This document shows positions 1 through 21,707 of a stretch of 32,000 nt of DNA, one piece after another. The notes below the pieces were generated by a model, which did not search any database, was not told the origin of the DNA, and saw nothing but the letters and a program-made list of their open reading frames with translations. The DNA comes from an uncultured Opitutales bacterium (GTDB taxonomy: Bacteria; Verrucomicrobiota; Verrucomicrobiia; Opitutales; Intestinicryptomonadaceae). The translations under genes were made by a program, and so were the position numbers. The stretch covers positions 540,001 through 572,000 of the forward strand of contig CAKTSY010000001.1 in NCBI GenBank assembly GCA_934613415.1, read 5' to 3'. Position 1 is the first letter of the stretch; each line of letters opens with the position of its first letter.

Positions 1-580
1 GCACTACAATGTCTTGAATGTGCTTACGGCTTTGTCGGCGCTTTATTCACAAGATATTGACATCGTAAAAGCGGCCCAAACCCTTGCCGACTTTAGGGGG
101 GTTCCCGGCAGAATGGAGCGCGTAAAAAGCAATGCGCCATTCGACATTTTTATAGACTACGCCCACACCGACGACGCCCTTAAAAACGGGCTTTCAATGC
201 TTAAAAGCGTTACAAAGAAAAGGCTTTTGGTTGTGTTCGGCTGCGGTGGCAAACGCGACAGAACAAAGAGACCAAAAATGGTTGCAGCCGTTCAAAAATA
301 TGCGGACTTTGCGTGGGCAACCTCTGACAATCCGCGCGGCGAAGACATCTCGCAAATCTTTGCGGATATGAAAGCGGGAGTTGTAGACAATTCAACAATA
401 GAGTTTGTTGAAAACCGCCGCCGAGCCATAAATATGGCAATTTCGCAGGCAAAGGAAGGCGACTGCATTCTTATTGCGGGCAAGGGTCACGAAACATTTC
501 AGGAATTAAAAGACACCATTATTCCCTTCGACGACAAAAAGGTTGCCGAAGAGCTGCTCGCCTTAAGGGAGTTGATATAA
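1..580 (+). CDS. murE: MurE (UDP-MurNAc-L-Ala-D-Glu:meso-diaminopimelate ligase), C-terminal part; the 5' end lies upstream of the window
   Basis: The frame is open from nt 2 (HYNVLNVLTAL...), so the listed ORF start at 14 is only an internal codon. Mur-ligase C-terminal motifs are present: DYAHTDDAL, VVFGCGGKRDRTKRP, SDNPRGED (the DNPR motif typical of mDAP-adding MurE) and IAGKGHE. It sits first in a dcw gene order. Confidence 0.9.
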   Translation, partial: HYNVLNVLTALSALYSQDIDIVKAAQTLADFRGVPGRMERVKSNAPFDIFIDYAHTDDALKNGLSMLKSVTKKRLLVVFGCGGKRDRTKRPKMVAAVQKYADFAWATSDNPRGEDISQIFADMKAGVVDNSTIEFVENRRRAINMAISQAKEGDCILIAGKGHETFQELKDTIIPFDDKKVAEELLALRELI

Positions 581-601
581 CTTTAAATACAAGGGTAAAA
601 A

Positions 602-2200
602 ATGCCATTCTTTAAATCTAACGACTTGAAAATCTGGACCGGCGGCGAATGGAAACAGCTGCCCAAAGACATAACTATTAACAAGTTTTCCACAGACACT
701 CGCACGCTTGAAAAAGGCGATGCCTTTGTTTGCCTAGTTGGCGAACGCGACGGACACGAATTTGCAAAAACAGCGCAGGAATTGGGAGCTAGCGCAATAA
801 TAGCCTCTAAAGAGCTAGAGGGCATAGAAATTCCCGTATTGCAGGTTGCCGACACATTAAAGGCACTGCAAACCATAGCAAAAATGCACAGGCTTAGGCT
901 CGACTACCCCGTAGTTGGAATAACGGGCTCGTGCGGCAAAACTTTCACAAAGGAATTATTGGCAAAAACTCTTGCATGGCGCAGCCCCTGCTATTCCGAA
1001 AAAAATTTAAACAACCAGCTGGGCGTAGCCTTAAGCCTGCTTAAGGCCGACTGCAAAAACAACAACTTGGCAATTATTGAAGCCGGCGTTTCGCGCCCAG
1101 AAGAGATGGACGTTTTGGCCTCCATGATAGAGCCGGACATTGCCGTTATAACCAATGTTACGGCGTCGCATTTGGCGGGCTTTGGCGAAATAAAACAAAT
1201 TGCAAAAGAAAAGGCAAAGCTTGCCGAACACTGTGCCGAAGGCGGCTATTGCGTTATGCCCGCGGGCCTGCTTTCGTGGAAGTCTTTCGACGAACTAAAA
1301 TGCAAAAAGGCAATAGCCTTGCCTATGGACGCCCCCGAAACAAAAGCCGACTTGGTGTTCAGATACCAAATAGGCTATTTGCCCGACAAGTGCTCGATAG
1401 AAATTTACCTTGAAGGCGGCAACGAATATTCGTTTGAAACCCCCCTTATGAGCAGGGGCAACGCCGAAGACACGGTTTTGGCGATAATAGTTTCGCTTAT
1501 GCTCGGCTGCAAAGAAGAAATTATATATACGGGCATAGAAAACACAAAGAATGTGGGCTATAGAAACCTGTTTGTAAACACGCCCAATGCCGAATATTTT
1601 ATAGACTGCTACAACGCAAACCCCACTTCTATGAAAGACTCTTTGGAGTTTTTCGAATTAAAATCGAAAGACGCCACGCAAAGAACTTTTGTTTTGGGCT
1701 CTATGGCCGAATTGGGAATTTCCACACTGAGCTACCATAGGGAAATTGCAAACAACATAAAACGCCGCGAAAACGACAAGGCAATATTGGTTGGCGAAAG
1801 CGCAAACATCTACAAGGACGCCCTTATAGAAAACGGCTGGAACGAAGCCGACATAACACTTTGCGAATCGGCGCAAGACGTAAAGCCTTTGTTGGAAAAC
1901 GCGGTGGGGTTTGTGTTCCTAAAGGGCAGTCGCAAATACGCGCTTGAAAACGCCCTGCCCGACGAAGTTGTAAACACAATAAACGGAACCGAACCAAAAT
2001 CCGAGGAACCCGCAAACGAAGAAAAGCCCGAAGACGAAACGCCGCCTAGCCCCAGCGAAAACGACGACGAACCCCACGCGCAAACCCTTTTAGACAGCAT
2101 CGACGAAAACGACGACGAAAGCGAGGAACACCATTTTTGCGACGACGACGATTTCGACGACGAAAACATACAAATAGACAAAGATATTGAAAGATTCTAA
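602..2200 (+). CDS. murF: MurF (UDP-MurNAc-tripeptide:D-Ala-D-Ala ligase) with an unusual ~80-aa Asp/Glu-rich C-terminal extension
   Basis: ATG at 602. P-loop GITGSCGKT and DCYNANPTSM are present, and the Mur ligase C-domain ends around FLKGSRKYALENAL (nt ~1950). Position is between murE and mraY. The acidic tail spans nt 1961-2197. Confidence 0.9.
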   Translation: MPFFKSNDLKIWTGGEWKQLPKDITINKFSTDTRTLEKGDAFVCLVGERDGHEFAKTAQELGASAIIASKELEGIEIPVLQVADTLKALQTIAKMHRLRLDYPVVGITGSCGKTFTKELLAKTLAWRSPCYSEKNLNNQLGVALSLLKADCKNNNLAIIEAGVSRPEEMDVLASMIEPDIAVITNVTASHLAGFGEIKQIAKEKAKLAEHCAEGGYCVMPAGLLSWKSFDELKCKKAIALPMDAPETKADLVFRYQIGYLPDKCSIEIYLEGGNEYSFETPLMSRGNAEDTVLAIIVSLMLGCKEEIIYTGIENTKNVGYRNLFVNTPNAEYFIDCYNANPTSMKDSLEFFELKSKDATQRTFVLGSMAELGISTLSYHREIANNIKRRENDKAILVGESANIYKDALIENGWNEADITLCESAQDVKPLLENAVGFVFLKGSRKYALENALPDEVVNTINGTEPKSEEPANEEKPEDETPPSPSENDDEPHAQTLLDSIDENDDESEEHHFCDDDDFDDENIQIDKDIERF

Positions 2201-2212
2201 CTTAATTTTGCT

Positions 2213-3310
2213 ATGTTATACTATCTGGCTGACTACGAAAATTTTTTCGGCCCGCTAAGGCTATTTAGATATTTGTCGTTTAGATGCCTTATGGCGTTTT
2301 GCTTTGCCGCGTTTATAGGGTTTCTTATTGCGCCGTATGCCATAGACATTCTGCACAAAATAAAATTCGGGCAGGCTTTTAGAACAAAAGAACAGGTTGG
2401 CAAACTTGCCGAATTGCACGCCGCAAAAAAGGGAACGCCTACAATGGGCGGCATTATAATATTTTTTGCGCTTGTAATTTCGGCGGTGCTTTGGGCGCAG
2501 CTAAACACGCTTGTTTTGGTTTCGCTTTTTGTTTATGTGTCGTTCACAATTTTGGGCTTTGCCGACGATTTTCTTAAAATTAAAAGAAAAAGCAGCGAGG
2601 GCGTTCACGGCAAAGTTAAGCTTTTAGTGCAGCTAATTGTGTCGCTTGCATGCGTTTTTGTTTTGGTAAACAGCCAATACGAAGGCGTTGTAAGAGATTT
2701 GTACGCGCCCTTTATAAAAGGCCCCATTATAAGCAATATGCCGATTTGGGCATTGTGTGCATTTTTCTTTTTGGTAATTTCTGGGGCAAGCAATGCAATT
2801 AACCTAACCGACGGCGTAGACGGCCTGGCTATAGGCTGCACAATTTCGTCTACACTTGCCTACGGCGTGTTTGCGTATGTTGCGGGCAACGCAATTGCCG
2901 CAAACTATTTGTTTTTACCCGCTATAAACGGCTGCGGCGAACTGTGCGTAGTTTGCGCCGCCCTAGTTGGGGCAAGCATGGCGTTTTTGTGGCACAATGC
3001 GTATCCTGCCGCCGTATTTATGGGCGACACTGGCTCGCTTGCACTAGGCGGCTTAATAGGCACAATGGCAATTTTAACGGCGCAGCCTTTAACCCTTGTA
3101 ATTGTCGGCGGCGTTTTTGTTATGGAAACCGTATCGGTTATGATGCAGGTTTCTTCCTACAAACTTTGCGGAAAAAGAATTTTTAGATGCACTCCCATAC
3201 ACCACCATTTTGAATACGGCGGTTGGAAGGAAACGCAGGTTGTAATAAGGTTTTGGATAATTTCGCTTGCGTTTGCCCTTATGGGAATTGCAACACTTAA
3301 ATTTAGATGA
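2213..3310 (+). CDS. mraY: Phospho-N-acetylmuramoyl-pentapeptide transferase MraY
   Basis: A 365-aa polytopic membrane protein with NAINLTDGVDGLA, FMGDTGSLALGG and a HHHFE motif, in the canonical dcw position. Confidence 0.95.
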   Translation: MLYYLADYENFFGPLRLFRYLSFRCLMAFCFAAFIGFLIAPYAIDILHKIKFGQAFRTKEQVGKLAELHAAKKGTPTMGGIIIFFALVISAVLWAQLNTLVLVSLFVYVSFTILGFADDFLKIKRKSSEGVHGKVKLLVQLIVSLACVFVLVNSQYEGVVRDLYAPFIKGPIISNMPIWALCAFFFLVISGASNAINLTDGVDGLAIGCTISSTLAYGVFAYVAGNAIAANYLFLPAINGCGELCVVCAALVGASMAFLWHNAYPAAVFMGDTGSLALGGLIGTMAILTAQPLTLVIVGGVFVMETVSVMMQVSSYKLCGKRIFRCTPIHHHFEYGGWKETQVVIRFWIISLAFALMGIATLKFR

Positions 3311-4581
3311 GCGACAAAATTAAAGAGCTTTGCAATAACAAGCCCGCCGCAATATTCGGCAAGGGCGTTAGTGCGTTGTGCGCCAAAGGCCTGTTCGACA
3401 GCCTTGGCATAGAATCGGTTTTATATTCCGAAAACGCCGCCGACAACTGCCCCGTTTTCGACGAAAACGCGGCAAAAAAACACAGCCTGGTTGTATATTC
3501 GCCTGCGTTTCGCCCCGATCACAAGTGGCTAAAGCTTGCCAAACAAAACAACGCCGAGCTTATTTGCGAGCCAGACTTGGCTTCGCTTGCCTGGCAGGGC
3601 AACATAATTGCAATTTCGGGCACAAACGGCAAAACCACAACAACCGCATTTTTGGCAAAGGCATTAAACGAAGCCGGCATTAACGCAGTTGCCGCCGGCA
3701 ACATAGGCATTCCGCTTTCAAAATTTTGCGTCGAAAAAAACGGCGGCAAAAATTGCACTGCGGTTTGCGAGCTAAGCTCTTTTCAGCTTATGGGCGTAAA
3801 ATATATGTCGCCTATAGCCTATGTTTGGACAAATTTCGATCAAGACCATTTGGATTGGCACACCGATATGCGCGAATATTTCGACGCAAAATTTGCGCTG
3901 GTTAAAATGCTAAAAAAACCCGTGTTTATTGTGGGGCAAAGCGTTGCCGACTATGCCGAAAAATACGGAGTTGCCCTGCCCGATTTTACCGAAGTTGTGC
4001 AAAGGCAAAACAACTGCCCAAAGCCTTTCGACAACAACATACAATGCGAAAATTATTGTCTGGCAAAAGCTCTGTTTAAAAAGCTGCAACTTAGCGAAGA
4101 AATTTTGCAAAAGGCAGCGCAAACATTTTCGCTTGCAAAATATAGGTTTGCAACAAGCGGCACAATAAACGGCATAACCTTTATAAACGACTCGAAAGGC
4201 ACAAACGCGCACTCTACAATAGCCGCCATAAACGCCCTTAAGGGAAAGCCCGTTATTTGGATAGGCGGCGGCAAAAATAAAAAGTGCGACTTAACCGATT
4301 TGGCAAACGCCGTTGCCGAAAACTGCAAATGCGCATTTTTAATTGGGCAAAGCGCAAGCTTGCTAGAGCCATTGCTTAACGAAAGACACTGCAATACAAA
4401 AACTTGCGCCACGCTAAAAGAAGCCGTATGCGGGGCGTACACCGCGGCAAAAAGCGGATACTATGTGCTCTTTAGCCCAGCCTTTTCAAGCTTCGGAATG
4501 TTCGACGGCTACGCACACCGCGGAAAATGTTTCGACGAAGAGCTTTTAAGTTTGAAAATCGCGCAAAAAGGGCAAGTATAA
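3307..4581 (+). CDS. murD: MurD (UDP-MurNAc-L-Ala:D-Glu ligase)
   Basis: ATGA start/stop overlap with mraY. P-loop ISGTNGKTTT, NDSKGTN and a FSPAFSSFGMF C-terminal motif are present. Confidence 0.9.
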   Translation: MSDKIKELCNNKPAAIFGKGVSALCAKGLFDSLGIESVLYSENAADNCPVFDENAAKKHSLVVYSPAFRPDHKWLKLAKQNNAELICEPDLASLAWQGNIIAISGTNGKTTTTAFLAKALNEAGINAVAAGNIGIPLSKFCVEKNGGKNCTAVCELSSFQLMGVKYMSPIAYVWTNFDQDHLDWHTDMREYFDAKFALVKMLKKPVFIVGQSVADYAEKYGVALPDFTEVVQRQNNCPKPFDNNIQCENYCLAKALFKKLQLSEEILQKAAQTFSLAKYRFATSGTINGITFINDSKGTNAHSTIAAINALKGKPVIWIGGGKNKKCDLTDLANAVAENCKCAFLIGQSASLLEPLLNERHCNTKTCATLKEAVCGAYTAAKSGYYVLFSPAFSSFGMFDGYAHRGKCFDEELLSLKIAQKGQV

Positions 4582-4608
4582 TTTCAATACATAAAGGATA
4601 ACCACACT

Positions 4609-5802
4609 ATGAAAAACTCACTTACAATAACGGCCATTGCCGCCTTGCATATTGCGGTAGGTTTGCTTATATTCGCGCAGTCGGGCTGCAACTCGGCTAG
4701 CGACCAAAAAACGGAAAAAGACGTTAACGCCGAAATAGTTCCCGCCAACGAAGAAAAGGTTGAAACTGCCGCCCCCGTTCAGGAAGAAGCTCCCGAAGGC
4801 AGCTCGGCATTAAGGGCAAACCCAACAAGGCCCGTTTGGTCGATGGACAACGGCAAAAACAAGCCCGTTATAGTCGAAAACCAGCCCTCTACAGTTTCGC
4901 CTAAATCTCAGGCAAACGAAGGGCTTATTGCACCCTCTACCTTAACGGCTAAAAGCGAAAAACAGCTGCCCGAAAATACAAAGATGTATACCGTAGCCAA
5001 GGGCGACTCGCTCGGCAAAATCGCAAGACGCCACAACACAACCGTTTCGAAACTTAAAAGCCTAAACAGCCTAAGCAGCCTTACAATAAAAGTAGGTCAA
5101 GAATTGATTGTGCCTGCAAACCCCTCCGACGAAGTTGTAAACCAAACCGCTCCCAAAGCGCAAACAATGGCTTCGGTTGAAAGCGTAGGCACCGACACAA
5201 TAAAATATAAAGTTCAAAAAGGCGATTCGCTCGGCAAGATTGCAAAACGCCACAACACAACCGTTTCGCAAATTAAGGCTTTAAACAACTTAAAGAACGA
5301 CACTATCCGCATCGGGCAAACCCTTACGCTTGAAAAATCGGGCAAAGCGGTTTCCGAAACAAAAGCTTCGGCAAAAACCGAAGCGCAAAAAAGCGAAGTT
5401 GCAGGCAATTTCGAGGTATACAAAGTTCAAAAAGGAGACACATTGGGCGCAATAGCCAGAAAAAACAAAGTTAGCCTTTCGCAGATAGAAAAGCTTAACC
5501 CCTCTATAAACCCCAAAAGGCTTAAGATTGGCCAGCTTGTAAAAATAAAGGCTGCAGCCGAAGTTAAGGAACAGCCCAAACCTCAGGCAACCCCCGAACA
5601 GCCCAAGGTTGAAGAACCCAAGCAACAGGTTCAACCCACAGTATCTGCGGCTCCTGCAGCTCCCGCAGCTGCGGCAGAAAACAAGGTTGAACAACAACCC
5701 AAGCCGGTTCAAACACAACCTGCACAGCCCGTGCAAGTTCAGCAAACTACAACTCCCGCCCCCGAACCAAAGGCAGGCGAAGAGGAAGTTATAGAAATAT
5801 AA
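4609..5802 (+). CDS. Exported or membrane-anchored protein with three LysM peptidoglycan-binding modules and a Pro/Gln/Ala-rich C-terminal tail
   Basis: ATG at 4609 with AAGGA upstream. The N-terminal hydrophobic segment ends in ..LLIFAQSGC, a possible lipobox. There are three [Y][TK]V.KGD[ST]LG.IA[RK]...V...[LI]..LN......[IL]..GQ.L modules. The last ~84 aa are low-complexity P/Q/A/V/E. Confidence 0.85.
   Translation: MKNSLTITAIAALHIAVGLLIFAQSGCNSASDQKTEKDVNAEIVPANEEKVETAAPVQEEAPEGSSALRANPTRPVWSMDNGKNKPVIVENQPSTVSPKSQANEGLIAPSTLTAKSEKQLPENTKMYTVAKGDSLGKIARRHNTTVSKLKSLNSLSSLTIKVGQELIVPANPSDEVVNQTAPKAQTMASVESVGTDTIKYKVQKGDSLGKIAKRHNTTVSQIKALNNLKNDTIRIGQTLTLEKSGKAVSETKASAKTEAQKSEVAGNFEVYKVQKGDTLGAIARKNKVSLSQIEKLNPSINPKRLKIGQLVKIKAAAEVKEQPKPQATPEQPKVEEPKQQVQPTVSAAPAAPAAAAENKVEQQPKPVQTQPAQPVQVQQTTTPAPEPKAGEEEVIEI
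4987..5547 (+). repeat. Three tandem LysM-coding modules (4987-5115, 5206-5331, 5419-5547)
   Basis: Modules 1 and 2 share an identical 21-nt stretch, cgccacaacacaaccgtttcg, at 5029-5049 and 5248-5268. Flanking DNA is near-identical (ggcga[ct]tcgctcggcaa[ag]at[ct]gcaa). Module 3 is more diverged. Confidence 0.85.
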
Positions 5803-5833
5803 TTAAAAAAAGAGAAAGCCGAATACATTTGAA

Positions 5834-6970
5834 ATGAAAAGCGAAAAACAAAAGACCGAGGGTAAGTCTCCAATTCCGTCGTGGCTGTTGTTTTTGCTTT
5901 TTGTAATCTTCCTTACCACTCTGGGCTTGGTTATCCTTATAAGCGCAGGGTCGGCAAAGGAAGATTCGCTTGTATTCTTTAAAAAACAGGCAACGTGGCT
6001 TGTAATTGCAACAATTATAGGAACGGCGGCGGCTTTTATAAATCTGAATCTACTAAAGAAATACGCCCTGCACTTCGGCGTATTTTCGGTTTTAACGCTT
6101 ATTGCGGTTGCAATTCCGCACATAGGCAAAGTTGTTAACGGCGCGCGCCGTTGGATAGAAATTGGCCCCATTACATTTCAGCCTAGCGACATAGGCAAAA
6201 TTGCGTTGGTTGTGCTGCTTGCCTGGTATTTGCAAAACAACCAAAGGTATATGAAAACCTTTTTAAAGGGCTTTGTATACCCGATGACAATTGCGGGCTT
6301 TTTCTTTTTGCTTATAATAATCGAGCCCGATTTCGGCACGGCAACACTTTGCGCAATCGTCTCGCTTAGCATGATATTTTTAGCGGGCACAAAATTTTTG
6401 TATATAATTGCAATTTTCATTTTTGGGGTTGCCGGCATTTTAACTTTGGTTTATTTCGACCCCGTGCGCTGGGCACGCCTTACAAGCTATTTGGATTTGG
6501 AAAACAACAAGCTAGACGGCGCATACCAGCTTTATCAGGCAATATTGGGCTTTGGCGCGGGCGGTGTAGACGGCGCAGGCCTAGGCCAGGGCCGCCAGCA
6601 GCAGTTCTTTTTACCCGAGGCGCACACCGACTTTATCTTTGCCATAGTAGGCGAAGAACTTGGGCTTGTGTTTACCCTTTTGGTTGTAGCCGCCTTTTTT
6701 GCAATGTTTTTAATTGTAGTTTCAAGGCTAAAAAAAGCCCCGAATATTTTCGAGCTATACATTGCGGCGGGCTCTATGCTAATGATAACGCTGCAGTCGA
6801 TTTTCAATATGGGTGTTGTTACGGGAATGTTCCCGACCAAGGGAATTTCGCTTCCGTTTTTAAGCTATGGGGGATCTAACCTTGTGGCTATGTTCGTTTT
6901 TGCGGGGCTGCTTGTAAACTGCCTGCGCTCGTGGAACAAACCCATTAAAATAAAGGCTACACTGCTATGA
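5834..6970 (+). CDS. ftsW: SEDS-family peptidoglycan glycosyltransferase FtsW
   Basis: A 378-aa polytopic protein with FQPSDIGKIALV, PEAHTDFIFA and GISLPFLSYGGSN motifs. The dcw position before murG supports FtsW rather than RodA. Confidence 0.9.
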   Translation: MKSEKQKTEGKSPIPSWLLFLLFVIFLTTLGLVILISAGSAKEDSLVFFKKQATWLVIATIIGTAAAFINLNLLKKYALHFGVFSVLTLIAVAIPHIGKVVNGARRWIEIGPITFQPSDIGKIALVVLLAWYLQNNQRYMKTFLKGFVYPMTIAGFFFLLIIIEPDFGTATLCAIVSLSMIFLAGTKFLYIIAIFIFGVAGILTLVYFDPVRWARLTSYLDLENNKLDGAYQLYQAILGFGAGGVDGAGLGQGRQQQFFLPEAHTDFIFAIVGEELGLVFTLLVVAAFFAMFLIVVSRLKKAPNIFELYIAAGSMLMITLQSIFNMGVVTGMFPTKGISLPFLSYGGSNLVAMFVFAGLLVNCLRSWNKPIKIKATLL

Positions 6971-8055
6971 GTAATTTTGTAATATCCTGCGGCGGCACGG
7001 GCGGGCATTTGGCCCCCGGAATAGCAATAGGCAAGGCGTTGATAAACAGGGGGCACAAAGTAGTTTTTGCCATAAGCAAAAAACAGGTAGATTCCGCCCT
7101 TGTAGAAAAATACCCCGAATGCGACTTTGTAAAAATTTCGGGCGCGCCCTTTTCGCTTAATCCGAAAAAGGCGTTAACATTTGCATATATGCAAACTTCG
7201 GGGCTTTTGGCTTCGCTTAAACTTTTAAAAAATTTTAATTGCAACACGGCAATAGCCTTTGGCGGCTTTAATTCGTTGGGCGTTGCGCTTGCGGCAAAAA
7301 TACTTAAACGCCGCCTTGTTTTGCACGAAGCCAATATGAAAATCGGCAAGGCCGTACGCTTTTTAAGCGTGTTTGCCGACCGCATTTACATTCCCCACGG
7401 AACTAGTATGGAGCGTTTTAAGCCCGACGTTGTAAAATATGCCGGCTACCCCGTTCGCCCCGAAATTAAGCGCATACCCAAAACCGAGGCTAAAGAATTT
7501 TTCGGCTTTGGCGAAAGCGACAGGGTTTTGCTTGTGTTTGGCGGCAGCCAAGGCGCCTTTGCCCTTAACGACTGGCTTGCAAAAAACGAAAGGCTTTTCG
7601 CCGAAAACGGAATTTCGGTGCTGTGCATTTGCGGCGCAAAATTCGGGGTTGAAAACGAAAAGCTTTTGCCCGCAAAAAACGGCAAAACGGTTAAAATAAA
7701 AAGAATTATGTTTTGCGACAATATGGCGTATGCGCTTTCGTGCTGCGACCTTGTTGTTGCGCGCGCGGGCGCGGGCTCTATTGCCGAATTTGCAAAATGC
7801 GGCTGCGTGCCCGTGTTAGTGCCCTTGCCCACTTCGGCCGACAACCACCAGTTTGAAAACGCAAAGCTTGTAGAGCGTTGCGGCGGCGGCCTGCTTATTC
7901 AGCAAAGCGACATCGACAAACTTTTCGACAATGTCAAAGACCTGTTTTTTAACGATGCATTAAAAGAGCGTATGGCAAAAAATCTTGCAAGGATAGACGC
8001 CATGAACGACGTTTCCGAAATGATTGCAGACATAGAAAAGTTGGCGGAGGCTTAA
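6967..8055 (+). CDS. murG: MurG (lipid I N-acetylglucosaminyltransferase)
   Basis: ATGA overlap with ftsW. Motifs CGGTGGHLAPGIA, FGGSQGA, ARAGAGSIAE and NHQFENA are present. Confidence 0.92.
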   Translation: MSNFVISCGGTGGHLAPGIAIGKALINRGHKVVFAISKKQVDSALVEKYPECDFVKISGAPFSLNPKKALTFAYMQTSGLLASLKLLKNFNCNTAIAFGGFNSLGVALAAKILKRRLVLHEANMKIGKAVRFLSVFADRIYIPHGTSMERFKPDVVKYAGYPVRPEIKRIPKTEAKEFFGFGESDRVLLVFGGSQGAFALNDWLAKNERLFAENGISVLCICGAKFGVENEKLLPAKNGKTVKIKRIMFCDNMAYALSCCDLVVARAGAGSIAEFAKCGCVPVLVPLPTSADNHQFENAKLVERCGGGLLIQQSDIDKLFDNVKDLFFNDALKERMAKNLARIDAMNDVSEMIADIEKLAEA

Positions 8056-8062
8056 AAAGCAA

Positions 8063-9280
8063 ATGGGCGTAGTCTATATGGGAGGCATTTGCGGAATGGG
8101 AATGGCGCCTTTGGCCATTCTCCTTAAGGCCGCAGGCAACACGGTTTTAGGCTTCGACGACAACGCCGACATTCGCGTAAAAAACCTGCTGCAGCAATTC
8201 GGCATAGAATGCCAAAGCTCTTTTAACGAAGCTGTAAAACCCGACTTGTTTGTAATTAGCACAGCCCTTTGTAGCCGCAACTTAAAAAGCACGGCAAAAA
8301 TACAAAGACGCGGCGTTTGTTTTGCGGACTTTTGCAAAAACAGAAAGCTTGTTGCAATAACGGGCAGCCACGGCAAAAGCACGGTAAGCAATCTTTGCGC
8401 GCACGCAATAAACAAACTTTCGCTTAACGCAGGCTATATGGTAGGAGCCTTGTCAGAGCACTACGCCCCGGCAAAATTCTGCAAAGACGGCGAATATATG
8501 TTTTCGGAAATAGACGAAAGCGACGCTACCATAGAAAACTTTTCGCCCGAAATTTGCGTTGCCTTAAACTACGATTTAGACCACACCGACACCTACAAAA
8601 ACGCCGACGCCCTAAAGGATATGTTTTGCAGGCTTTTTGAAAGGACAAAGCAAAAAATAATAGTGCCCAGCTGCGACAAAACATTGTGCGAACTGGCAAA
8701 AGCTTCGGGCAAAAATTTCGAGATTGTGCAAATTGAACCGAATGCCGATTTTTCCTTAATAAACGCGCTTATGGCGCAATGCGCATTAAAAAGCGTTTTT
8801 GGAGACACCTTAGATTGCACCGTTTTAAATTCTTTTGAAGGAACATACCGAAGGCAGGAGGTTTTGTGCAATACCCCCGCCCTTTTTGCGATGGCAGACT
8901 ACGCGCATCACCCAAGCGAAGTAAAAGCCTTTTTAAATTGGTTTGGCAAAAAATACGGCAACGGCAATTATATATTTTTCCAGCCCCACAGATATTCAAG
9001 AACAAAGTGCTTTGCAAAAACTTTTGCGCAAATTTTAGAGGATTTTGCAAAACAAGGCAACAGCGTCTACGTTTTGCCTGTATATGCGGCAAGCGAAAAA
9101 TTCGACGAGCTTGGAACTTCCGACAAAATAACGCAAAATTCGCAACTGTTAAAATTGGCAAGTTTTTCGGAAATGCAAAAAATTGTAGAGCAGCTAAAAA
9201 CCGGCGGCAAAAAATCCGCCGCATTTGTCGGGGCCGGCGACATTTATTTTAAGGCAAAGGAGTTTATATTACAGAAATGA
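8063..9280 (+). CDS. murC: MurC (UDP-MurNAc:L-Ala ligase), short form (405 aa)
   Basis: GGAGG lies 12 nt upstream of the ATG. The N-terminal Rossmann motif is GGICGMGMAPLA. P-loop TGSHGKST, DYAHHPSEV and FQPHRYSRT are present. An alternative start at Met6 (8078) is possible. Confidence 0.88.
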   Translation: MGVVYMGGICGMGMAPLAILLKAAGNTVLGFDDNADIRVKNLLQQFGIECQSSFNEAVKPDLFVISTALCSRNLKSTAKIQRRGVCFADFCKNRKLVAITGSHGKSTVSNLCAHAINKLSLNAGYMVGALSEHYAPAKFCKDGEYMFSEIDESDATIENFSPEICVALNYDLDHTDTYKNADALKDMFCRLFERTKQKIIVPSCDKTLCELAKASGKNFEIVQIEPNADFSLINALMAQCALKSVFGDTLDCTVLNSFEGTYRRQEVLCNTPALFAMADYAHHPSEVKAFLNWFGKKYGNGNYIFFQPHRYSRTKCFAKTFAQILEDFAKQGNSVYVLPVYAASEKFDELGTSDKITQNSQLLKLASFSEMQKIVEQLKTGGKKSAAFVGAGDIYFKAKEFILQK

Positions 9281-10191
9281 AAAGTTTTAAATTGGCGGTA
9301 CTGTGCGGCGGAATTTCGCCCGAAAGAGACGTTTCGCTAGTAAGCGGCAGCTATGTGGCAAAGGCTTTGGAAAATTTCTACGATGTGGAAAAATTTGAGC
9401 TTGCCGAAAACAAACTGCCCGAAAAGCTTAACGGCAAAGACTATGTTGTAATGCCCGTAATGCATGGCGACTACGGCGAAAACGGCGGGCTTCAGCGCGA
9501 CTTGGAAAACGCCAATATTGCATTTGCAGGCTGCGGCAGTTTGTCTAGCTCGGTTTGCATGGTTAAACCCGCGGCAAAAGCCCTTATGCGCTCGGCAAAT
9601 ATTAACACTGCAAAGGAAATTCTGTTTTGTTCTTCCGACAAAATTTCGGGGCAAAGCCTGGTAGAAATTTTGGACAATAAAACAGTAATAAAACCCGCCG
9701 ATAAAGGTTCAAGCGTTGGGCTTAAGTGCCCCGAAGGCGTTGCCGAAACCGACAGCGCGCTAAAAGATTTGGACAACGGGCAATGGATGGCCGAAAGCTT
9801 TTTTAAGGGACGCGAATTGTCGGTTGGCGTTTTAAACGGCCGCGCAATGGGCATTGTTGAAATAAAACCCGAAGGCGGCGTATACGACTTTAAACGCAAG
9901 TATACGGCGGGCTCTACAAAATACGAATTTCCCGCCCAAATAGGCGACGAAAATACAAAAAAAATTCAGGCTGCCGCCGAACGCGCCTACATAGCCTGCG
10001 GCTGCCGAGACTTTTGCAGGGTAGACTTTATTTTGGGCGAAACTTCGTTTATTGCGCTTGAAATAAACACGCTTCCGGGTATGACGCCCACAAGCTTGCT
10101 GCCCAAAAGCGCATCGTGCATAGGCTTAAGTTTTAACGACTTGTGCAACGAAATGGTAAAACCCGCAATACAAAGGTTTTTAAACAGCTAA
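9277..10191 (+). CDS. ddl: D-alanine--D-alanine ligase
   Basis: ATGA overlap with murC. Motifs LAVLCGGISPERDVSLVSG, an ATP-grasp core and EINTLPGMT are present. Confidence 0.9.
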   Translation: MKSFKLAVLCGGISPERDVSLVSGSYVAKALENFYDVEKFELAENKLPEKLNGKDYVVMPVMHGDYGENGGLQRDLENANIAFAGCGSLSSSVCMVKPAAKALMRSANINTAKEILFCSSDKISGQSLVEILDNKTVIKPADKGSSVGLKCPEGVAETDSALKDLDNGQWMAESFFKGRELSVGVLNGRAMGIVEIKPEGGVYDFKRKYTAGSTKYEFPAQIGDENTKKIQAAAERAYIACGCRDFCRVDFILGETSFIALEINTLPGMTPTSLLPKSASCIGLSFNDLCNEMVKPAIQRFLNS

Positions 10192-11057
10192 TGGCAACAA
10201 AACAAAAGTCTAAAACCTGGAAAGACATAGGCAAAAGCAAAAGCTCTAAAAAAGCCCCCTTGTCTTTCGAGGCAAAGTTCAGAAAATTTGCGATATTTTG
10301 CAAAATTGGCGGCTTTGTGCTGCTGTTGGCGGCCTTGGGCTTTGGCGCATACAAGGCGGTGCAGTTGGGCTTCGTAGACGACATTTTATACAACAAAAAT
10401 CAGGTTGCAAAAAAGCTGTTTTTAGACAACCCCGACGGCAAGATTTCCCCAAAATGGATAAGGGAATATCTGGGCATAAAAAAGGCAACCCCCATAGACA
10501 AAATAGACCTGCTTGGACTTAAGAAAAAAATCGAAAATGTAAATCAGGTAAGTTCGGCAAAAGTTGAAAGGGTTTACCCCGACCAAATAAAAATCTGCAT
10601 AACCGAGAAAAAGCCAATAGCCAAGGTAAACACAAACAACGGCGTTTTGCTTATGTCGGCAAACGGTGAATTTTTTGAACCTATATGCTATGCCGTAGAG
10701 GAAATCGACGCGTTTGTAGAGCTTACGGGTATAAAGATTTTGAAACAGGGCAAAAAATATGTTGCATACCCGATGGCAAAAACCGTAAACGAGCTTTTTG
10801 CGGAAACAAAAAAAATGCTGCCAGCGGTTTTCAACACCTACCAAAGGGTAGACTTAAGCGACCTGCACTCGAAGGTTTCGCCGCTGCTTGAAGTATACAC
10901 AAACGAAGACGTTAAAATAATATTTTTGGCGACAGATTTTAACAAGCAGCTTTCCAAGCTCGAATATGTTTTAAGATACGCAAAAGACAAATCCGTAAGG
11001 GGTGCACAAATAGACTTGTCTCTTGAAGGCCGTACTGATATGAAATTGCGAAAATAG
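10191..11057 (+). CDS. ftsQ: Cell division protein FtsQ (Lys-rich cytoplasmic N-terminus, one TM helix, POTRA domain)
   Basis: I prefer the ATG at 10191 (TAATG overlap with the ddl stop) over the track's GTG at 10143. The TM helix is FAIFCKIGGFVLLLAALGFGAY. The POTRA-like segment is ...IREYLGIKKATPIDKIDLLGLKKKIENVNQVSSAKVERVYPDQIKICITEKKPIA. It lies between ddl and ftsA. Confidence 0.75.
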   Translation: MATKQKSKTWKDIGKSKSSKKAPLSFEAKFRKFAIFCKIGGFVLLLAALGFGAYKAVQLGFVDDILYNKNQVAKKLFLDNPDGKISPKWIREYLGIKKATPIDKIDLLGLKKKIENVNQVSSAKVERVYPDQIKICITEKKPIAKVNTNNGVLLMSANGEFFEPICYAVEEIDAFVELTGIKILKQGKKYVAYPMAKTVNELFAETKKMLPAVFNTYQRVDLSDLHSKVSPLLEVYTNEDVKIIFLATDFNKQLSKLEYVLRYAKDKSVRGAQIDLSLEGRTDMKLRK

Positions 11058-11068
11058 GATAATTTTTT

Positions 11069-12268
11069 ATGAACGACAGCAAAATGGTGGCAGCCCTCGA
11101 AATAGGAACCTCGAAAATGCAGGTTTTTGTGGGGGAAATTGTAGACGGCGAGTCTTTAAGCATTATAGGAATGGGACAAAAGCCCAGTGCTGGCGTAAAA
11201 AAAGGCGACATTGTAGACTTAAAAAAAGCGTCGCAGTTGGCGCAAGAGGCAATTTTAGACGCCGAAAAAAACACAAGCATAAAAACAAAGTCTATTTATG
11301 TTAGCATTAGCGGCTCGCAAATAAAGGGCATGCGCACAATGGGCTATGCAAACGTGCGCAGCGCAAACAATATTGTTACCCAAGAAGACGTAGACAGAGC
11401 CTGCGAAGACGCAAAAAGCAAAACATTGCCCGAAAACAGAGCCTTTATACATTTCATTTGCTGCGGCTACTATATAGACGGCGTATATTGCCAAGACCCT
11501 GTCGGCAAGCGCGCCCGCCGCATAGACGCCGAATTTTGGCTTGTACACGACGATTGCGACGCCATTGCAAACACCGTTCACATTGTGCGAAGCTTCGGAA
11601 TGGAAGTAGACGACATTGTGCTTTCGGCGATTGCGTCGGCTAGAATGGTAACAAGCATGCAGCAGCGCAAGGAAGGCGTTTTGGTTATAGACATAGGCTG
11701 CGGCACAACCGACTATGCAATGTACAAAAATTCGAGAATAGTTATTGCCGGCACAATTCCCGTAGGCGGCGACCATATTACAAACGACCTTGCGCACGGC
11801 CTTAGGCTTTACAACAAAAACGCAGAGCTTTTAAAATGCAAAATAGGCAAAGCCGTAATTAGCGAAGACGAAAAATCGGAATTTATCTGGACAAAGGGCG
11901 ACCAGCAAATTGGCGACAGAAAAATTTCGCTAAACTCTATGAACATAATAATAAGGGCAAGGCTTGAAGAACTTTTCCTTATACTAAGAGACGAGCTTGG
12001 CGAGGTTTTCGACTCTACAATTCAAAGCGTTGTAATAACGGGCGGAACCTCGCGCCTTACGGGCATAAACGAGCTTGCCGAGGGCGTTTTGGGCGTAAAA
12101 TGCACAACGGGCAAATTCAATTCGTGGGTAAAACATTCGCTTTGCCACCCAGAATTTGCAACGTCGCTTGGGCTGTTAGACTACGCGCTTGAAAACGAAA
12201 TACGCAACGCTTCCGACTCGGGCGAAGGCCTGTTTTCTAAAATTAAGGGGCTTTGGAGGAATCTGTAA
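11069..12268 (+). CDS. ftsA: Cell division protein FtsA (actin-like ATPase) with a C-terminal amphipathic membrane-targeting helix
   Basis: Motifs ALEIGTSKMQV, VIDIGCGTTD and VITGGTSRLTGI (ASKHA phosphate/adenosine motifs) are present. The C-terminus GLFSKIKGLWRNL looks amphipathic. Confidence 0.9.
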   Translation: MNDSKMVAALEIGTSKMQVFVGEIVDGESLSIIGMGQKPSAGVKKGDIVDLKKASQLAQEAILDAEKNTSIKTKSIYVSISGSQIKGMRTMGYANVRSANNIVTQEDVDRACEDAKSKTLPENRAFIHFICCGYYIDGVYCQDPVGKRARRIDAEFWLVHDDCDAIANTVHIVRSFGMEVDDIVLSAIASARMVTSMQQRKEGVLVIDIGCGTTDYAMYKNSRIVIAGTIPVGGDHITNDLAHGLRLYNKNAELLKCKIGKAVISEDEKSEFIWTKGDQQIGDRKISLNSMNIIIRARLEELFLILRDELGEVFDSTIQSVVITGGTSRLTGINELAEGVLGVKCTTGKFNSWVKHSLCHPEFATSLGLLDYALENEIRNASDSGEGLFSKIKGLWRNL

Positions 12269-13017
12269 TGGCGGCAAACATAAAGATTATAGGAATCGGC
12301 AAAGGAGGCTCTTTTTTGGCGTCTAAGCTAAAGATGGGAGCCTTTAAAAACGCGGCGTGCTGCGCGGTTTCAACAAACAAGACCGATTTGGAAAGCGTTT
12401 CGATAGGCGAAAAAATGCTGATTAGTGCCGACCCCGAAGCCGCCCAACTTCAGATTGCGTCTATAAAGCGCAGCATAGAAGGATATTCCACAATAATTTT
12501 ATTGGCGCAATTTGGGGGAGATAAATCTGCGCATCTGACCGCCGCATTCGCAAAAATTGCAAAGACAATGAATATTGGCAGGCTTGCCATTTGCGCAATT
12601 GCAAACAAGATAGACGACTATTCCAGAGCCTCGCTTGCCCGCCTTAGGGAAAATTGCGAAAACCTGCTATGCCTACCGAACGACCTTTCCGTAGGCGAAA
12701 TATTCCGTCAAAACGATATAATGAAGTCCTTTCAGTATGTGCAGACAATTCCCCCGCAAAGGGTTGCGCCCGAAGTAAAGAAAACTTCGTTTATGTCGAA
12801 AATAACAAGGTCTAAACCCAAAGACACGCCGCCTGCCGAGCAAAAAAGCCAAACGCCAAAGGCGGCCTCGGGCGAAAACCTTGCCCAAGACGAATTTCCC
12901 TTCGTTTCGCTTTCCGAACAAAGGGGCTTTTTCGGCGATACAAAACGCAATTTCTACAACGGCGAAGATTTGGATATACCAACCTATTTGCGCCGAAACC
13001 TTAAAATTATAGTATAG
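12268..13017 (+). CDS. ftsZ: Degenerate, truncated FtsZ-like protein (~249 aa): N-terminal FtsZ-like half, Lys/Pro/Ser/Gln linker and conserved FtsZ C-terminal peptide
   Basis: The ATG at 12268 overlaps the ftsA stop (TAATG) and GGAGG lies 8 nt upstream; the track's 12253 start is a TTG. NIKIIGIGKGGSF compares with canonical IKVIGVGGGGxNA, AVSTNKTDL with AxNTDxQxL, and LLCLPND with LIxIPND. The C-terminal EDLDIPTYLRRN matches the FtsA-binding peptide. The tubulin signature GGGTG[ST]G is replaced by FGGDKSAH, and no T7 loop or C-terminal domain is present. Confidence 0.7.
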   Translation: MAANIKIIGIGKGGSFLASKLKMGAFKNAACCAVSTNKTDLESVSIGEKMLISADPEAAQLQIASIKRSIEGYSTIILLAQFGGDKSAHLTAAFAKIAKTMNIGRLAICAIANKIDDYSRASLARLRENCENLLCLPNDLSVGEIFRQNDIMKSFQYVQTIPPQRVAPEVKKTSFMSKITRSKPKDTPPAEQKSQTPKAASGENLAQDEFPFVSLSEQRGFFGDTKRNFYNGEDLDIPTYLRRNLKIIV

Positions 13018-13021
13018 AAAA

Positions 13022-13312
13022 ATGATAACCCACTTTGTTGTAATAAGAACTAAATCGGGCGAAAACGCCTCTAAAATTTTAGAGGGCCTGCAAACCCTAA
13101 AACAGATTAAATGCGCCGACAGCGTAAGTTTTGGCAGCCCCGTTGCCAGCGAAAGACCAGTTGTAGACGACACATTCACCGCCGCCTTGTGCGTTCAGTG
13201 CAAAGATTCCCAAACCCTTTCGCAATATCTTAACGACCCTATCCACGTTAAATTCGCCCAAGACTATCTAAAAAAGTATCAGGCAAAAATAACGGTGTAT
13301 GACGTTCAGTAG
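13022..13312 (+). CDS. Dabb (stress-responsive alpha/beta-barrel) domain protein
   Basis: A 96-aa protein. The pattern MITHFVVIR..., ...TAALCVQCKDSQTLSQYLNDPIHVKFAQ... is typical of the Dabb family. It starts 4 nt after the ftsZ-like stop. Confidence 0.7.
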   Translation: MITHFVVIRTKSGENASKILEGLQTLKQIKCADSVSFGSPVASERPVVDDTFTAALCVQCKDSQTLSQYLNDPIHVKFAQDYLKKYQAKITVYDVQ

Positions 13313-14657
13313 CAAAGACGCCTGCCAATATATTGCCGCCCAAGCGGCGGCTCTCGGCGGCCGCGCCTACTATGTGGGCGGCTGCGTGCGAGACTCTATT
13401 TTAGGCATACAGTCGAAAGATACCGACGTTGAAATTTTCGGGTTAAGCCCCGAACAAATAGAAAAAGTTTTGTCGAAAAAATTCCACTTCGAAGCTGTCG
13501 GCAAAAGCTTTGGGGTTTGGATTTTAAAAGGGCTGGATATAGACGTAAGTATGCCGCGCAAAGAGCGCAAAAACGGGCTGGGCCATAAATCGTTCGAAAT
13601 TATAGGCGACCCAAACCTTTCGCCCAAAGAGGCGTGCTCGCGCCGCGACTTTACCATAAACGCAATGCTGCGCGACATTTTAAGCGGCGAAATTATAGAC
13701 CCTTTTGACGGACAAAAAGACCTTGCAAAAAAGCTTATAAGGCACACTTCCGACAAGTTTGCGGAAGACCCTTTGCGCGTGCTTAGGGCAATGCAGTTTG
13801 CCGCGCGCTTCGATTTTGACGTGGCAGAAAAAACCGTCGAACTTTGCTCGAATATACCCATGGAAAACCTACCAAAAGAAAGGGTTTTTCAGGAATTTAA
13901 AAAGCTTATTTTAAAGGGCAAAAAAATTTCGAGGGGACTTGCCTTTTTAAGAGATTGCAACTGGGTTAAATATTTCCCCGAACTTTCGGCAATGGTTGGC
14001 TGCCCGCAAGACCCTATTTGGCACCCCGAAGGAGACGTATACACCCACACAATGCTTTGTATGGACTCTTTTGCGCAAGACCGCATTGGCGACGAAAAGG
14101 AAGACACCATTGTAGGCCTTGCCGTTTTATGCCACGATATGGGCAAACCCCTTTGCACTAAAAAAGACTCTACCGGACGCATACGCTCGCTAGGTCACGA
14201 CATTTTGGGAGGCCCTGTTGCCGAAAAGTTTTTACGCCGCATTAGCGACGAAAAAGTTTTGCTAGACGACGTAAAAGTTTTGGTTGAACGGCATATGGCA
14301 ATTTTAGACTTGTGGCGTTCAAAAGCGGGCGATTCCGCCATACGCAGGCTTGCAAACAAGGTAGGTCGCATAGACAGGCTTGTGCGCATCGACAAGGCCG
14401 ACCGCGAAGGCCGCGCCGTAAAAGAGGTAGAAAGCTCGCCACAGGGCGAATGGATTTTGTCGAGAGCCGAAGAATTGAAAATTAAAGATTCCGCCCCCAA
14501 GCCCCTGCTAATGGGAAGGCACCTTATAGAGCGCAAGCTAAAGCCGTCGCCAAAGTTTGCCGAAATTTTAAACGCCGCCTACGAAGCCCAGCTAGACGGA
14601 AAATTCTTCGACCTAGACGGCGCGTTGAAATATCTAGACAATGTGTTGCTAAAGTAG
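13299..14657 (+). CDS. cca: tRNA nucleotidyltransferase (CCA-adding enzyme) with a C-terminal HD phosphohydrolase domain
   Basis: The Pol-beta head motif is GGCVRDSILG...DTDVEIFG. RRDFTINAM and the HD motif LCHDMGKP are present. It overlaps the Dabb gene by 14 nt. Confidence 0.85.
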   Translation: MTFSSKDACQYIAAQAAALGGRAYYVGGCVRDSILGIQSKDTDVEIFGLSPEQIEKVLSKKFHFEAVGKSFGVWILKGLDIDVSMPRKERKNGLGHKSFEIIGDPNLSPKEACSRRDFTINAMLRDILSGEIIDPFDGQKDLAKKLIRHTSDKFAEDPLRVLRAMQFAARFDFDVAEKTVELCSNIPMENLPKERVFQEFKKLILKGKKISRGLAFLRDCNWVKYFPELSAMVGCPQDPIWHPEGDVYTHTMLCMDSFAQDRIGDEKEDTIVGLAVLCHDMGKPLCTKKDSTGRIRSLGHDILGGPVAEKFLRRISDEKVLLDDVKVLVERHMAILDLWRSKAGDSAIRRLANKVGRIDRLVRIDKADREGRAVKEVESSPQGEWILSRAEELKIKDSAPKPLLMGRHLIERKLKPSPKFAEILNAAYEAQLDGKFFDLDGALKYLDNVLLK

Positions 14658-20355: not shown

Positions 20356-21702
20356 TTAAACCGTTTCGGGGGCTGCAACTATTGCAAACATAATTTCGGC
20401 CGACGAAACCGTTTTGCCGTCTACACAACACTCAGCCGTTGCGCATGCAAATTTTTCGCCGCGCGTTTTTGTTATTTTTACGTCTATTTGAATTTGGTCG
20501 CCCGGCTTTACGGTGTTACGAAACTTTACGTTGTCGGCACTCATAAAATATGCAATTTTGTTTTCGCCGTTAACGTGCCTTAGCATAAGCACGCCCGCCG
20601 CCTGCGCCATTGCCTCGAGCTGCAAAACCCCCGGCATTACGGGGTTGCCAGGGAAGTGCCCCTGAAAAAACGGCTCGTTAATTGTAACGTTCTTTATTGC
20701 AGTAAGAGACATATTGTCGGGGCTAACCTTAACGACTTTGTCTATCATCACAAAGGGGTATCTATGCGGCAACAAATCCAAAATGCGGCGCGAGTCCAAT
20801 ACCTCTTCGGTAAACATCTTTACCTTGGGCGAAAGAGACTTTGCCGGAGTAGAATGCTCTTCGGCGGGCACGGCAGTCATTTGCTCGTAGATTGCCTTTG
20901 TAAGCTTTGCGTTAAGCGAATGCCCCGGGCGCACGGCAATTATGTGTGCTTTAAGTTTTTTGCCCAGCAAAGCCAAATCGCCCATAAGGTCTAAAATCTT
21001 ATGGCGCACAAACTCGTCCTGAAAACGCAGGGGCTCTTTCGACAAAATTTTGTCGCCCTTAATAACTATTGCAGAATCTAAGCTGCCGCCCTGAATTTTG
21101 CCCATTTTAAGCAAGGGCTCTATATCTTCGTAAACTGTAAATGTGCGCGAAGGAGCAATGTCGGACTGGTAGAAATCCGGATACAAATCTACCGACAAGT
21201 GCTGGGTGTGAATGCCCCTGTCGTCGGCCGAAGTGCAGGTTATTTTTAAGCCGTCGTATGGCAATGCAATAAGCGAGCGGTTGCCGTCGGTTACCGAAAG
21301 CGGGCTTTTAAGAGAATAGTATTCGCGCTCGGCGTTTTGCTCTACGGGTTCTGCCTGCTGTATTAAATTTACAAAATATTTCGCCGAACCGTCTAAAATG
21401 GGGGGTTCTGCGGCGTTCATTTCGACAATAACGTTGTCGATATTCATACCGTTTAACGCCGACATAACGTGCTCTATTGTATGAAGCGAAACATTGCCGT
21501 CGCTAACGCCCGTGTTGCGTATTAAATCTGTGCCTATAAGGGTAATAGACGGCTTTATTTCGGGCTTGCCGTAAAGGTCTTTGCGCCTGAAAACTATGCC
21601 CGTATTTTCGGGGGCGGGCTTTAATGTAAGCGTTACGTCTACACCCGAGTGCAACGCTTTGCCGCTAATCGAAACTTCCCTATTTATGGTTCTTTGCTTC
21701 AT
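20356..21702 (-). CDS. lpxC-fabZ: Bifunctional LpxC (UDP-3-O-acyl-GlcNAc deacetylase) / FabZ (3-hydroxyacyl-ACP dehydratase) fusion
   Basis: I prefer the start [20 protein letters not shown] at 21702 (compare E. coli MIKQRTLKR...). The track's 21783 start would overlap obg by 76 nt. The LpxC motifs are [10 protein letters not shown] and [10 protein letters not shown]. The FabZ part contains [12 protein letters not shown] and [15 protein letters not shown]. Confidence 0.9.
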
Positions 21703-21707
21703 ATCGT

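Follow-up and report, generated by a model that had tools for sequence, protein, structure and literature searches.

How much of FtsZ can a bacterium lose while an ftsZ gene keeps its place in the division gene cluster? This question is raised by a 249-amino-acid (249-aa) open reading frame (ORF) at positions 12268-13017 (+) of a 32-kb stretch of DNA from an uncultured Opitutales bacterium, referred to here as the window. The ORF, which we call short ftsZ, directly follows ftsA in the division and cell wall (dcw) cluster, in the slot that holds a full-length ftsZ at 70+ Opitutales loci. Treadmilling of FtsZ, dependent on guanosine triphosphate (GTP), is seen as the principle that organises bacterial cytokinesis, and the Chlamydiota and Planctomycetota are the main FtsZ exceptions among peptidoglycan-making bacteria. 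An earlier inspection of the sequence by eye (the original prediction) described the ORF as an FtsZ remnant with eroded GTP-binding loops, no C-terminal domain and an intact FtsA-binding tail. In our best reading, to which we give a probability of about 0.6, the short protein would be an FtsA-bound adaptor or scaffold that neither hydrolyses GTP nor forms canonical polymers.

The FtsZ-derived core and the retained tail

Profile searches and structure prediction both connect the short protein to FtsZ. The NCBIfam profile TIGR00065 (ftsZ) matches aa 3-159 with an E value of 1e-8, over profile positions 18-192 of 353, and the match to Pfam Tubulin PF00091 is marginal (E 0.006). A single-sequence search of the PDB returned FtsZ chains for aa 3-164 (E 1.5e-4), and a profile built from the four known short sequences matched FtsZ in the PDB with an E value of 1.5e-10. 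When the short family was aligned with canonical Opitutales FtsZ by hhalign, columns 4-158 paired with columns 24-197 at a probability of 99.9% (E 2e-33). The AlphaFold2 model has six strand-helix units in aa 1-140, where the predicted local distance difference test score (pLDDT) is 73-94 per 10-residue block; segment 147-205 is mostly disordered (pLDDT <50) and the tail is modelled with moderate confidence (pLDDT 77-88). In a Foldseek search of the PDB with this model, all 50 of the 50 best matches were FtsZ (E ~1e-9). Together these matches argue for homology between residues 4-158 and the FtsZ N-terminal domain. The closest relatives of the short protein are Opitutales FtsZ. The original prediction had placed an ftsZ derivative in the ftsZ slot, and both the significant profile homology (TIGR00065, hhalign) and the position after ftsA agree with it.

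The short protein nevertheless scores far under the family cut-offs, with 34.9 versus 295.2 bits for TIGR00065 and 17.4 versus 33 bits for PF00091. Because most family-defining features fail (the score cut-offs, T4, T3, T5, T7 and FtsZ_C), it should be called FtsZ-derived rather than "an FtsZ". In NCBI the short proteins are labelled "hypothetical protein" (MDY6069366.1, MFI3291383.1). The elements that we distinguish within the gene are listed below, as window positions, strand and description.

12268..13017, +, short ftsZ ORF: ATG at 12268, TAG at 13015-13017, 249 aa plus stop
12268..12687, +, FtsZ N-terminal Rossmann-type domain, aa 1-140, with strands alternating with helices (AlphaFold, Foldseek)
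12292..12315, +, remnant of the T1 loop, GIGKGGSF (canonical GIGGAGTN / GVGGGGGN)
12424..12432, +, site of the T3-loop deletion (14 aa; canonical motif GxGAG), between Ser53-Ala54-Asp55 and Pro56, from alignments
12511..12534, +, remnant of the T4 "tubulin signature", FGGDKSAH (canonical LGGGTGSG, pattern GGGTG[ST]G)
12598..12618, +, T5 region IANKIDD, 5 aa shorter than canonical, with the PFxFEG motif lost
12676..12684, +, T6 Pro-Asn-Asp, retained in the window (SSD and PNS in the other short lineages)
12688..12747, +, remnant of H6 and the start of H7, aa 141-160, with a conserved EIF-x-Q-x-x-I and low pLDDT; the deletion breakpoint lies directly 3'
12748..12879, +, disordered K/P/S/Q-rich linker, aa 161-204 (pLDDT <50)
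12880..13014, +, conserved 45-aa Opitutales FtsZ tail, LAQDEFPF..EQRGFF..RNFYNGEDLDIPTYLRRNLKIIV, from alignment and selection
12964..12999, +, C-terminal peptide EDLDIPTYLRRN, which aligns with E. coli FtsZ YLDIPAFLRKQ, the peptide that docks FtsA and ZipA

We compared the short protein loop by loop with Opitutales and E. coli FtsZ in alignments. The N-terminal extension of Opitutales FtsZ (~24 aa) is absent, T2 reads STN versus the canonical NTD or DTD, and T4 is GDDNSAH in one of the remaining short lineages and DDDKSVI in another; AQF-x-x-D-x-S is the short-family consensus that replaces the tubulin signature. The FtsZ alignment ends in the first third of H7 and has no T7 columns (NxDxxD). 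A stretch of ~125 aa, or aligned columns, is absent, comprising the latter half of H7, the T7 loop and the entire C-terminal domain: Pfam FtsZ_C PF12327 has no match in the short protein at E <= 10, and a tblastn search with six full-length FtsZ against all frames of the 32-kb window found no remnant of the missing part. The short protein has no coiled coil or extra domain. A clean in-frame internal deletion, as proposed from the sequence alone, is upheld by the lack of such a remnant in any window frame and by the recurrence of the same ORF in independent assemblies. The reading of T1 and T4 as degraded and of T2/T3 as shortened also holds, as the G-box is truly degenerate and not misaligned. 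One detail of the original prediction needs adjustment: the T4 peptide FGGDKSAH is correct, but the start that had been given, 12505, includes the preceding Ala-Gln.

T7 sequences also vary among ordinary Opitutales FtsZ, in which the loops NLDFAML or NVDFSTL occur, for example in L014 (Cerasicoccus frondis) and P0008 (Oceanipulchritudo). These loops are without the second Asp of E. coli NVDFAD (D212), and P0197 has a canonical loop, NIDFADL.

The tail is the best-conserved part of the short protein and is intact, as had been claimed. It has 58-60% identity with its counterparts in full-length Opitutales FtsZ, 64% of its positions are invariant within the short family, and it accounts for most of the database matches of the protein. 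Its DLDIPTYLRR is identical to Opitutales FtsZ tails and aligns with E. coli YLDIPAFLRK. Docking of FtsA and ZipA by the C-terminal peptide is established for E. coli and T. maritima FtsZ. Canonical Opitutales FtsZ (~420 aa) and the short form thus have in common the post-ftsA slot, a Rossmann-type N-domain with strands S1-S6, a disordered linker and the 45-aa tail with the FtsA-docking peptide DLD[IV]PTYLRR. In Verrucomicrobium spinosum, the C-terminal extension of FtsZ is essential (PMC12283558).

Conservation, selection and origin of the short form

The short gene is neither rare in public data nor variable in its protein sequence. Among public assemblies, 58 index blocks contain the exact 249-aa protein, on contigs of up to 0.2-1 Mb. 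Seventeen gene copies from separate ENA, Logan and NCBI contigs represent 13 DNA alleles, none with a stop or frameshift. Variation among these copies is purely synonymous in 98 of the 109 variable codons, and the 11 amino-acid changes are all conservative, with 7 of them in the linker. Comparison with a 96%-identical sister species (L001, L002), at a synonymous divergence (dS) of 0.65-0.70, gave a ratio of non-synonymous to synonymous divergence (dN/dS) of 0.03 for the whole short ftsZ, 0.02 for the N-domain, 0.10 for the linker and 0 for the tail, in which the window and L001 differ by no non-synonymous change. The neighbouring genes gave 0.01 (ftsA), 0.045 (ftsW), 0.06 (murG) and 0.10 (ddl). 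The N-domain is therefore constrained and functional, and the term "remnant" used in the original prediction is misleading. An assembly deletion or frameshift was rejected, as the same ORF recurs in ENA, NCBI, Logan and JGI data, on dozens of independent contigs; a pseudogene was rejected on the basis of dN/dS and the polymorphism counts.

When 1.84 billion cluster representatives were searched exhaustively with HMMER, only three short clusters (at 50% identity) came up, and everything else was full-length FtsZ. The short clusters are P0001 (249 aa, 96% identity to the window protein), P0034 (248 aa, 46%) and P0035 (243 aa, 42%). Deletion breakpoints are common to all three, and in each the gene occupies the same slot, in the order ftsQ, ftsA, short ftsZ, a Dabb gene and a CCA/poly(A)-polymerase-family gene. 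The expectation that the short ORF would be conserved in relatives and under purifying selection was thus correct. In a neighbour-joining tree from FtsA, Ddl, MurC and FtsQ, the carriers of short FtsZ are monophyletic (99% bootstrap) and nested in a super-clade with 100% support; FtsA identity among them goes down to 48-68%. Because the carriers form one clade, the deletion would have occurred once, in the deep common ancestor of a small Opitutales clade.

The metagenome-assembled genomes (MAGs) with the short form bear the label Opitutales, in NCBI taxonomy a taxon of the Verrucomicrobiota, part of the Planctomycetota-Verrucomicrobiota-Chlamydiota (PVC) group. Verrucomicrobiota are said to retain ftsZ and all dcw genes (PMC12283558), and we found no description in the literature searched of a truncated or domain-deleted FtsZ orthologue in Opitutales or Verrucomicrobiota. 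Two contigs with an Opitutales-type FtsZ tail are in MAGs with other labels, namely L024 (JBNMPR010000019.1), labelled Zhongshania aliphaticivorans (Gammaproteobacteria), and L068 (JAPYRO010000131.1), labelled Dehalococcoidia; these labels probably reflect bin contamination.

Erosion of FtsZ extends beyond the carriers of the short form. Their sister group has a full-length FtsZ (390-480 aa) in an unchanged ftsZ slot and includes Puniceicoccaceae bacterium Marseille-Q1082, HGM23550, UBA6410, an uncultured Opitutales MAG (E27__bin283), P0037 and P0038. The ftsZ ORFs of this group end near locus position 6200 in L026, L027, L032 and L037 and span 8001-9281 in L092. Like the short form, these proteins belong to the super-clade with a LysM gene before ftsW in the dcw layout, and have the conserved tail and a fast-evolving core; unlike it, they retain H7, the T7 region and the C-terminal domain, which places the short form one step further. 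Their nucleotide loops are altered: T4 is GGGTGSV, or GGETGSE in P0038, which is also without the T3 motif; T5 is PLSVEG; the Asn of T1 is replaced by Lys or Glu; and T7 is NIGIPSF, NIDLPSF or NTDFPTL versus the canonical NxDFxx.

Throughout the super-clade, divergence is faster in the FtsZ N-domain than in FtsA, while tail identity stays at 58-93%. For example, L026 and L037 are 44% identical in the FtsZ N-domain and 73% in FtsA, and L037 and L092 are 28% and 55% identical, respectively. By this pattern, the constrained part of FtsZ in the super-clade is the tail and not the GTPase, and the deletion would be the end point of a lineage-wide relaxation that predates it. GTPase activity may be weak or absent in the sister-lineage FtsZ. 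The record of Marseille-Q1082 describes an isolate, with no MAG label, so this strain could serve as an experimental handle.

The dcw cluster around short ftsZ

The features that surround short ftsZ are listed in the same form as above.

14..13017, +, dcw cluster, from Pfam matches and the gene tables of near-identical contigs
5834..6970, +, ftsW (FTSW_RODA_SPOVE family), from PF01098 on the orthologous gene of L001
10191..11057, +, ftsQ (POTRA_1, E 3.4e-8), with the likely ATG at 10191, at the ddl stop
11069..12268, +, ftsA, 399 aa (TIGR01174, E 2.3e-82, exceeding the curated cut-off)
12255..12259, +, GGAGG ribosome-binding site, 8 nucleotides (nt) 5' of the short-ftsZ ATG, read from the sequence
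12266..12270, +, TAATG overlap, in which the ftsA stop TAA (12266-12268) shares a base with the ATG (12268-12270)
13022..13312, +, Dabb gene (stress-responsive A/B barrel), from Pfam, starting 4 nt after the short-ftsZ stop
13299..14657, +, CCA/poly(A)-polymerase-family gene, overlapping the Dabb gene

From 14 to 13017, the cluster consists of the 3' end of a Mur ligase gene, a second Mur ligase gene, mraY, a Mur ligase gene in the murD position, a gene for a LysM protein, ftsW, murG, a Mur ligase gene in the murC position, ddl, ftsQ, ftsA and short ftsZ. This order is that of all relatives. The C-terminal end of FtsA is amphipathic (GLFSKIKGLWRNL). The TAATG overlap would couple translation of short ftsZ to that of ftsA, and the two genes overlap or directly abut in L001, L007 and L011 as well. 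The coordinates given in the original prediction for the TAATG, for the GGAGG 8 nt upstream, for the next gene 4 nt after the stop and for the tail peptide at 12964-12999 are all right. We found no promoter or terminator of its own around short ftsZ above shuffled expectation. A horizontally acquired island was rejected, as the GC content of ~0.46 matches the flanks.

The start of ftsQ in the ORF list is a GTG at 10143, which would give a 49-nt overlap with ddl; the 288-aa gene calls of relatives favour the ATG at 10191. Lying at the ddl stop, this ATG would add a stop/start coupling comparable to those of ftsA with short ftsZ and of murG with ftsW.

The pair formed by the Dabb gene and the CCA/poly(A)-polymerase-family gene is present 3' of ftsZ only in the short-FtsZ clade, among ~100 loci compared. 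It could be a marker of rearrangement or a co-expressed partner. The Dabb gene was rejected as a displaced FtsZ C-terminal domain: its match to Dabb is full-length (E 1.3e-10, positions 1-94 of 96), and it is located 3' of the tail. The LysM protein (397 aa, three LysM domains; window 4609-5802, +) is encoded between the murD-position ligase gene and ftsW, and all super-clade loci that we examined (L001, L007, L011, L092 and L094) contain this insertion. It looks like a clade-specific component of the divisome or one that binds peptidoglycan. Further along the window, LpxC and FabZ/FabA-type dehydratase domains are joined in one ORF (an LpxC-FabZ fusion, 20356-21783, -) that is flanked by an LpxA-like acyltransferase gene; the fusion is unrelated to short ftsZ.

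Function and evolutionary meaning

We propose that one in-frame internal deletion removed the entire C-terminal domain together with the T7 loop and the second half of H7, and that the nucleotide loops T3, T4 and T5 disappeared or changed in sequence as well. GTP hydrolysis requires that the T7 loop of the next subunit be inserted into the nucleotide pocket, and the longitudinal interface of FtsZ needs the bottom face, composed of H7-T7-H8 and the C-terminal domain. Because the T7 loop and the bottom face are absent, the short protein would not be expected to form canonical head-to-tail filaments or to activate GTP hydrolysis. T3 and T4 hold the phosphates in FtsZ, with T3 as the gamma-phosphate sensor. 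GTP binding is probably gone, because T3 is deleted and GGGTGSG has become GGDKSAH. Because the FtsA/ZipA-docking peptide is invariant here, the retained role is most likely linked to FtsA, and would consist of tail-mediated docking on FtsA, and possibly on other tail partners, at the membrane. The N-domain would act as a constrained interaction or oligomerisation module. The short protein might then serve the FtsQ/FtsW divisome as a scaffold or as a switch of the FtsA state, modulating its oligomeric state close to the membrane and upstream of FtsQ and FtsW, instead of as a treadmilling GTPase polymer. Bacteria with short FtsZ may divide without a GTP-driven Z-ring.

Several points weigh against this adaptor or scaffold role. 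A passive spacer would not need the strong constraint seen in the N-domain (dN/dS 0.02); because this ratio is very low, the N-domain would appear to have a specific activity of its own, for example in oligomerisation or partner binding. The N-domain may still bind a ligand, or may have a new interface for polymerisation. We infer the loss of GTP binding and polymerisation from motifs only, and homology is our ground for assuming that the tail binds FtsA. Finally, JAXFOH01, one of the two representative MAGs with the short form, is very fragmented, and the genome may encode a second, canonical FtsZ or a further tubulin homologue at another site.

A more far-reaching version of the adaptor reading is that the short protein is the sole FtsZ-family protein of these Opitutales, which make peptidoglycan, with no GTP binding and no treadmilling Z-ring, and that division is organised by FtsA, along with FtsQ, FtsW and other components, and by this pseudo-GTPase with its tail. 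We hold this version tentatively. No tubulin-like gene was found elsewhere in the 32-kb window. For JAXFOH01 and JAWXTY01, the two carrier genomes, a scan of GTDB species representatives for the tail pattern gave the dcw-slot locus and no other, and it gave no genome with two matches, both results holding among the best 80 of 411 relatives; this pattern would miss an FtsZ without a tail. We also searched with aa 1-311 of P0037, whose FtsZ core is the most canonical in the super-clade. Among the closest matches checked there was no relocated ftsZ paralogue, in what is a low-power test; the close relatives came from its own lineage only, followed by P0196 and P0197 (42% identity), which are post-ftsA orthologues of other lineages.

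Alternatively, the short protein could regulate a canonical FtsZ encoded elsewhere, by competing for FtsA or binding FtsZ subunits. ARC3 is not known to act as a GTPase polymer any longer, and the truncated FtsZ paralogues of the Hyphomicrobiales are not known to have the C-terminal linker and the FtsA-binding peptide, which would make theirs the inverse of the architecture described here. Degenerate FtsZ-like proteins that act on true FtsZ provide precedents for such a regulator: ARC3 of plant chloroplasts, in which an FtsZ-like domain is joined to a middle domain and MORN, inhibits FtsZ ring assembly directly (PMC12232670), and A. tumefaciens FtsZ1 is a further case (10.1101/2025.09.29.679267), in which FtsZ1 and FtsZ3 are extra copies of the GTPase region beside an essential full-length FtsZ. 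In ARC3, as in the short form, an FtsZ-derived domain is re-used for protein-protein interaction in division; however, ARC3 is a eukaryotic chimera that inhibits bona fide FtsZ1/FtsZ2 rings and is without an FtsA-binding tail. The truncated Hyphomicrobiales paralogues resemble the short form in that they are naturally shortened FtsZ-family proteins kept over long evolutionary times, whereas the short form is a dcw-slot orthologue, is the only copy detected, and has kept the tail and linker with its globular core halved.

The constraint on the N-domain would fit a specific protein-binding role of this kind. However, the location of the short gene in the ancestral ftsZ slot makes it an orthologue and not a paralogue, and neither the tail-pattern scan for the two carrier genomes (again among the best 80 of 411) nor, in the closest matches checked, the canonical-core search gave anything other than dcw-slot loci. 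In the sister clade, where the full-length FtsZ is single-copy, its GTPase motifs are eroded too, which points to lineage-wide relaxation and not to replacement, and the top-face loops T3 and T5 that a capping protein needs are deleted. We consider a regulatory role unlikely.

We regard as improbable a nucleotide-dependent polymer with a rebuilt pocket (AQF-x-x-D-x-S, GxGKGG) and a new subunit interface, in which a modified Z-ring persists. The invariance of the T1 GxGxxG and of the family motifs (AQF, D85, S87, EIF-Q-I) speaks for such a polymer, as does the N-domain dN/dS of 0.02. The pocket itself argues otherwise, as T3 is deleted, the T5 PFxFEG is lost, Asp, Lys and Ser stand in place of the phosphate-binding glycines of T4, the Asn-Asp of T6 varies within the family, and there is no T7 loop to complete the active site of the adjacent subunit. 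We know of no FtsZ or tubulin that polymerises without its C-terminal domain. A possible parallel is FtsZl1, whose FtsZ-like N-domain is also without T6-H7 and the FtsZ/tubulin C-terminal domain, and for which polymerisation by a novel mechanism was put forward as a possibility (Makarova & Koonin 2010, PMC2875224). Unlike the short form, which derives from the resident ftsZ, FtsZl1 is an ancient paralogue outside the dcw cluster that has a coiled coil and an unrelated alpha-helical C-domain and is without the FtsZ tail. Nmar_1262 of Nitrosopumilus maritimus, a Cdv-dividing archaeon, has a degenerate GTP motif, is without the conserved T7 loop and does not polymerise (PMC3684127). It is a full-length protein from an archaeon whose division machinery (Cdv) is known, whereas the short form retains its link to FtsA and no replacement machinery is identified here.

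That the ORF is a decaying pseudogene fragment or an artefact of assembly or gene calling, without function, has next to no probability: the "hypothetical protein" annotation and the scores under the Pfam and NCBIfam cut-offs would suit it, but the same architecture recurs in dozens of independent assemblies, length and breakpoints are conserved across lineages only 42-46% identical, dN/dS is 0.03 at a dS of 0.65-0.70 with 17 copies free of stops and frameshifts, the ribosome-binding site and stop/start coupling are conserved and the base composition matches that of the neighbouring genes, and this reading is effectively refuted by the selection, breakpoint and allele data.

The "hypothetical" labels of the short proteins create an annotation gap, in that surveys would count these genomes as FtsZ-less. 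The original prediction had linked the locus to the loss of FtsZ in Chlamydiae and Planctomycetes, and this link is apt for an organism of the Opitutales, in the Verrucomicrobiota and the PVC group. Here, a natural and conserved FtsZ orthologue from this group appears to have shed the parts for GTP hydrolysis and canonical polymerisation and kept the FtsA-docking tail, and sister lineages show intermediate erosion. The interest of this finding for the cell-division and PVC fields depends on the short form being the only FtsZ-family gene. If it is the sole copy, these lineages would provide a graded natural series for reconstructing the loss of FtsZ dependence, which would test whether tail scaffolding or GTPase dynamics is the FtsZ function that stays essential longest, and a small protein that could be expressed directly for assays of oligomerisation and of binding to GTP and FtsA. 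The part of FtsZ that stays indispensable to the last would then be the FtsA-binding tail together with a non-catalytic function of the N-domain, and these bacteria would represent a living intermediate between FtsZ-driven division and the FtsZ-less division of the Chlamydiota and Planctomycetota.

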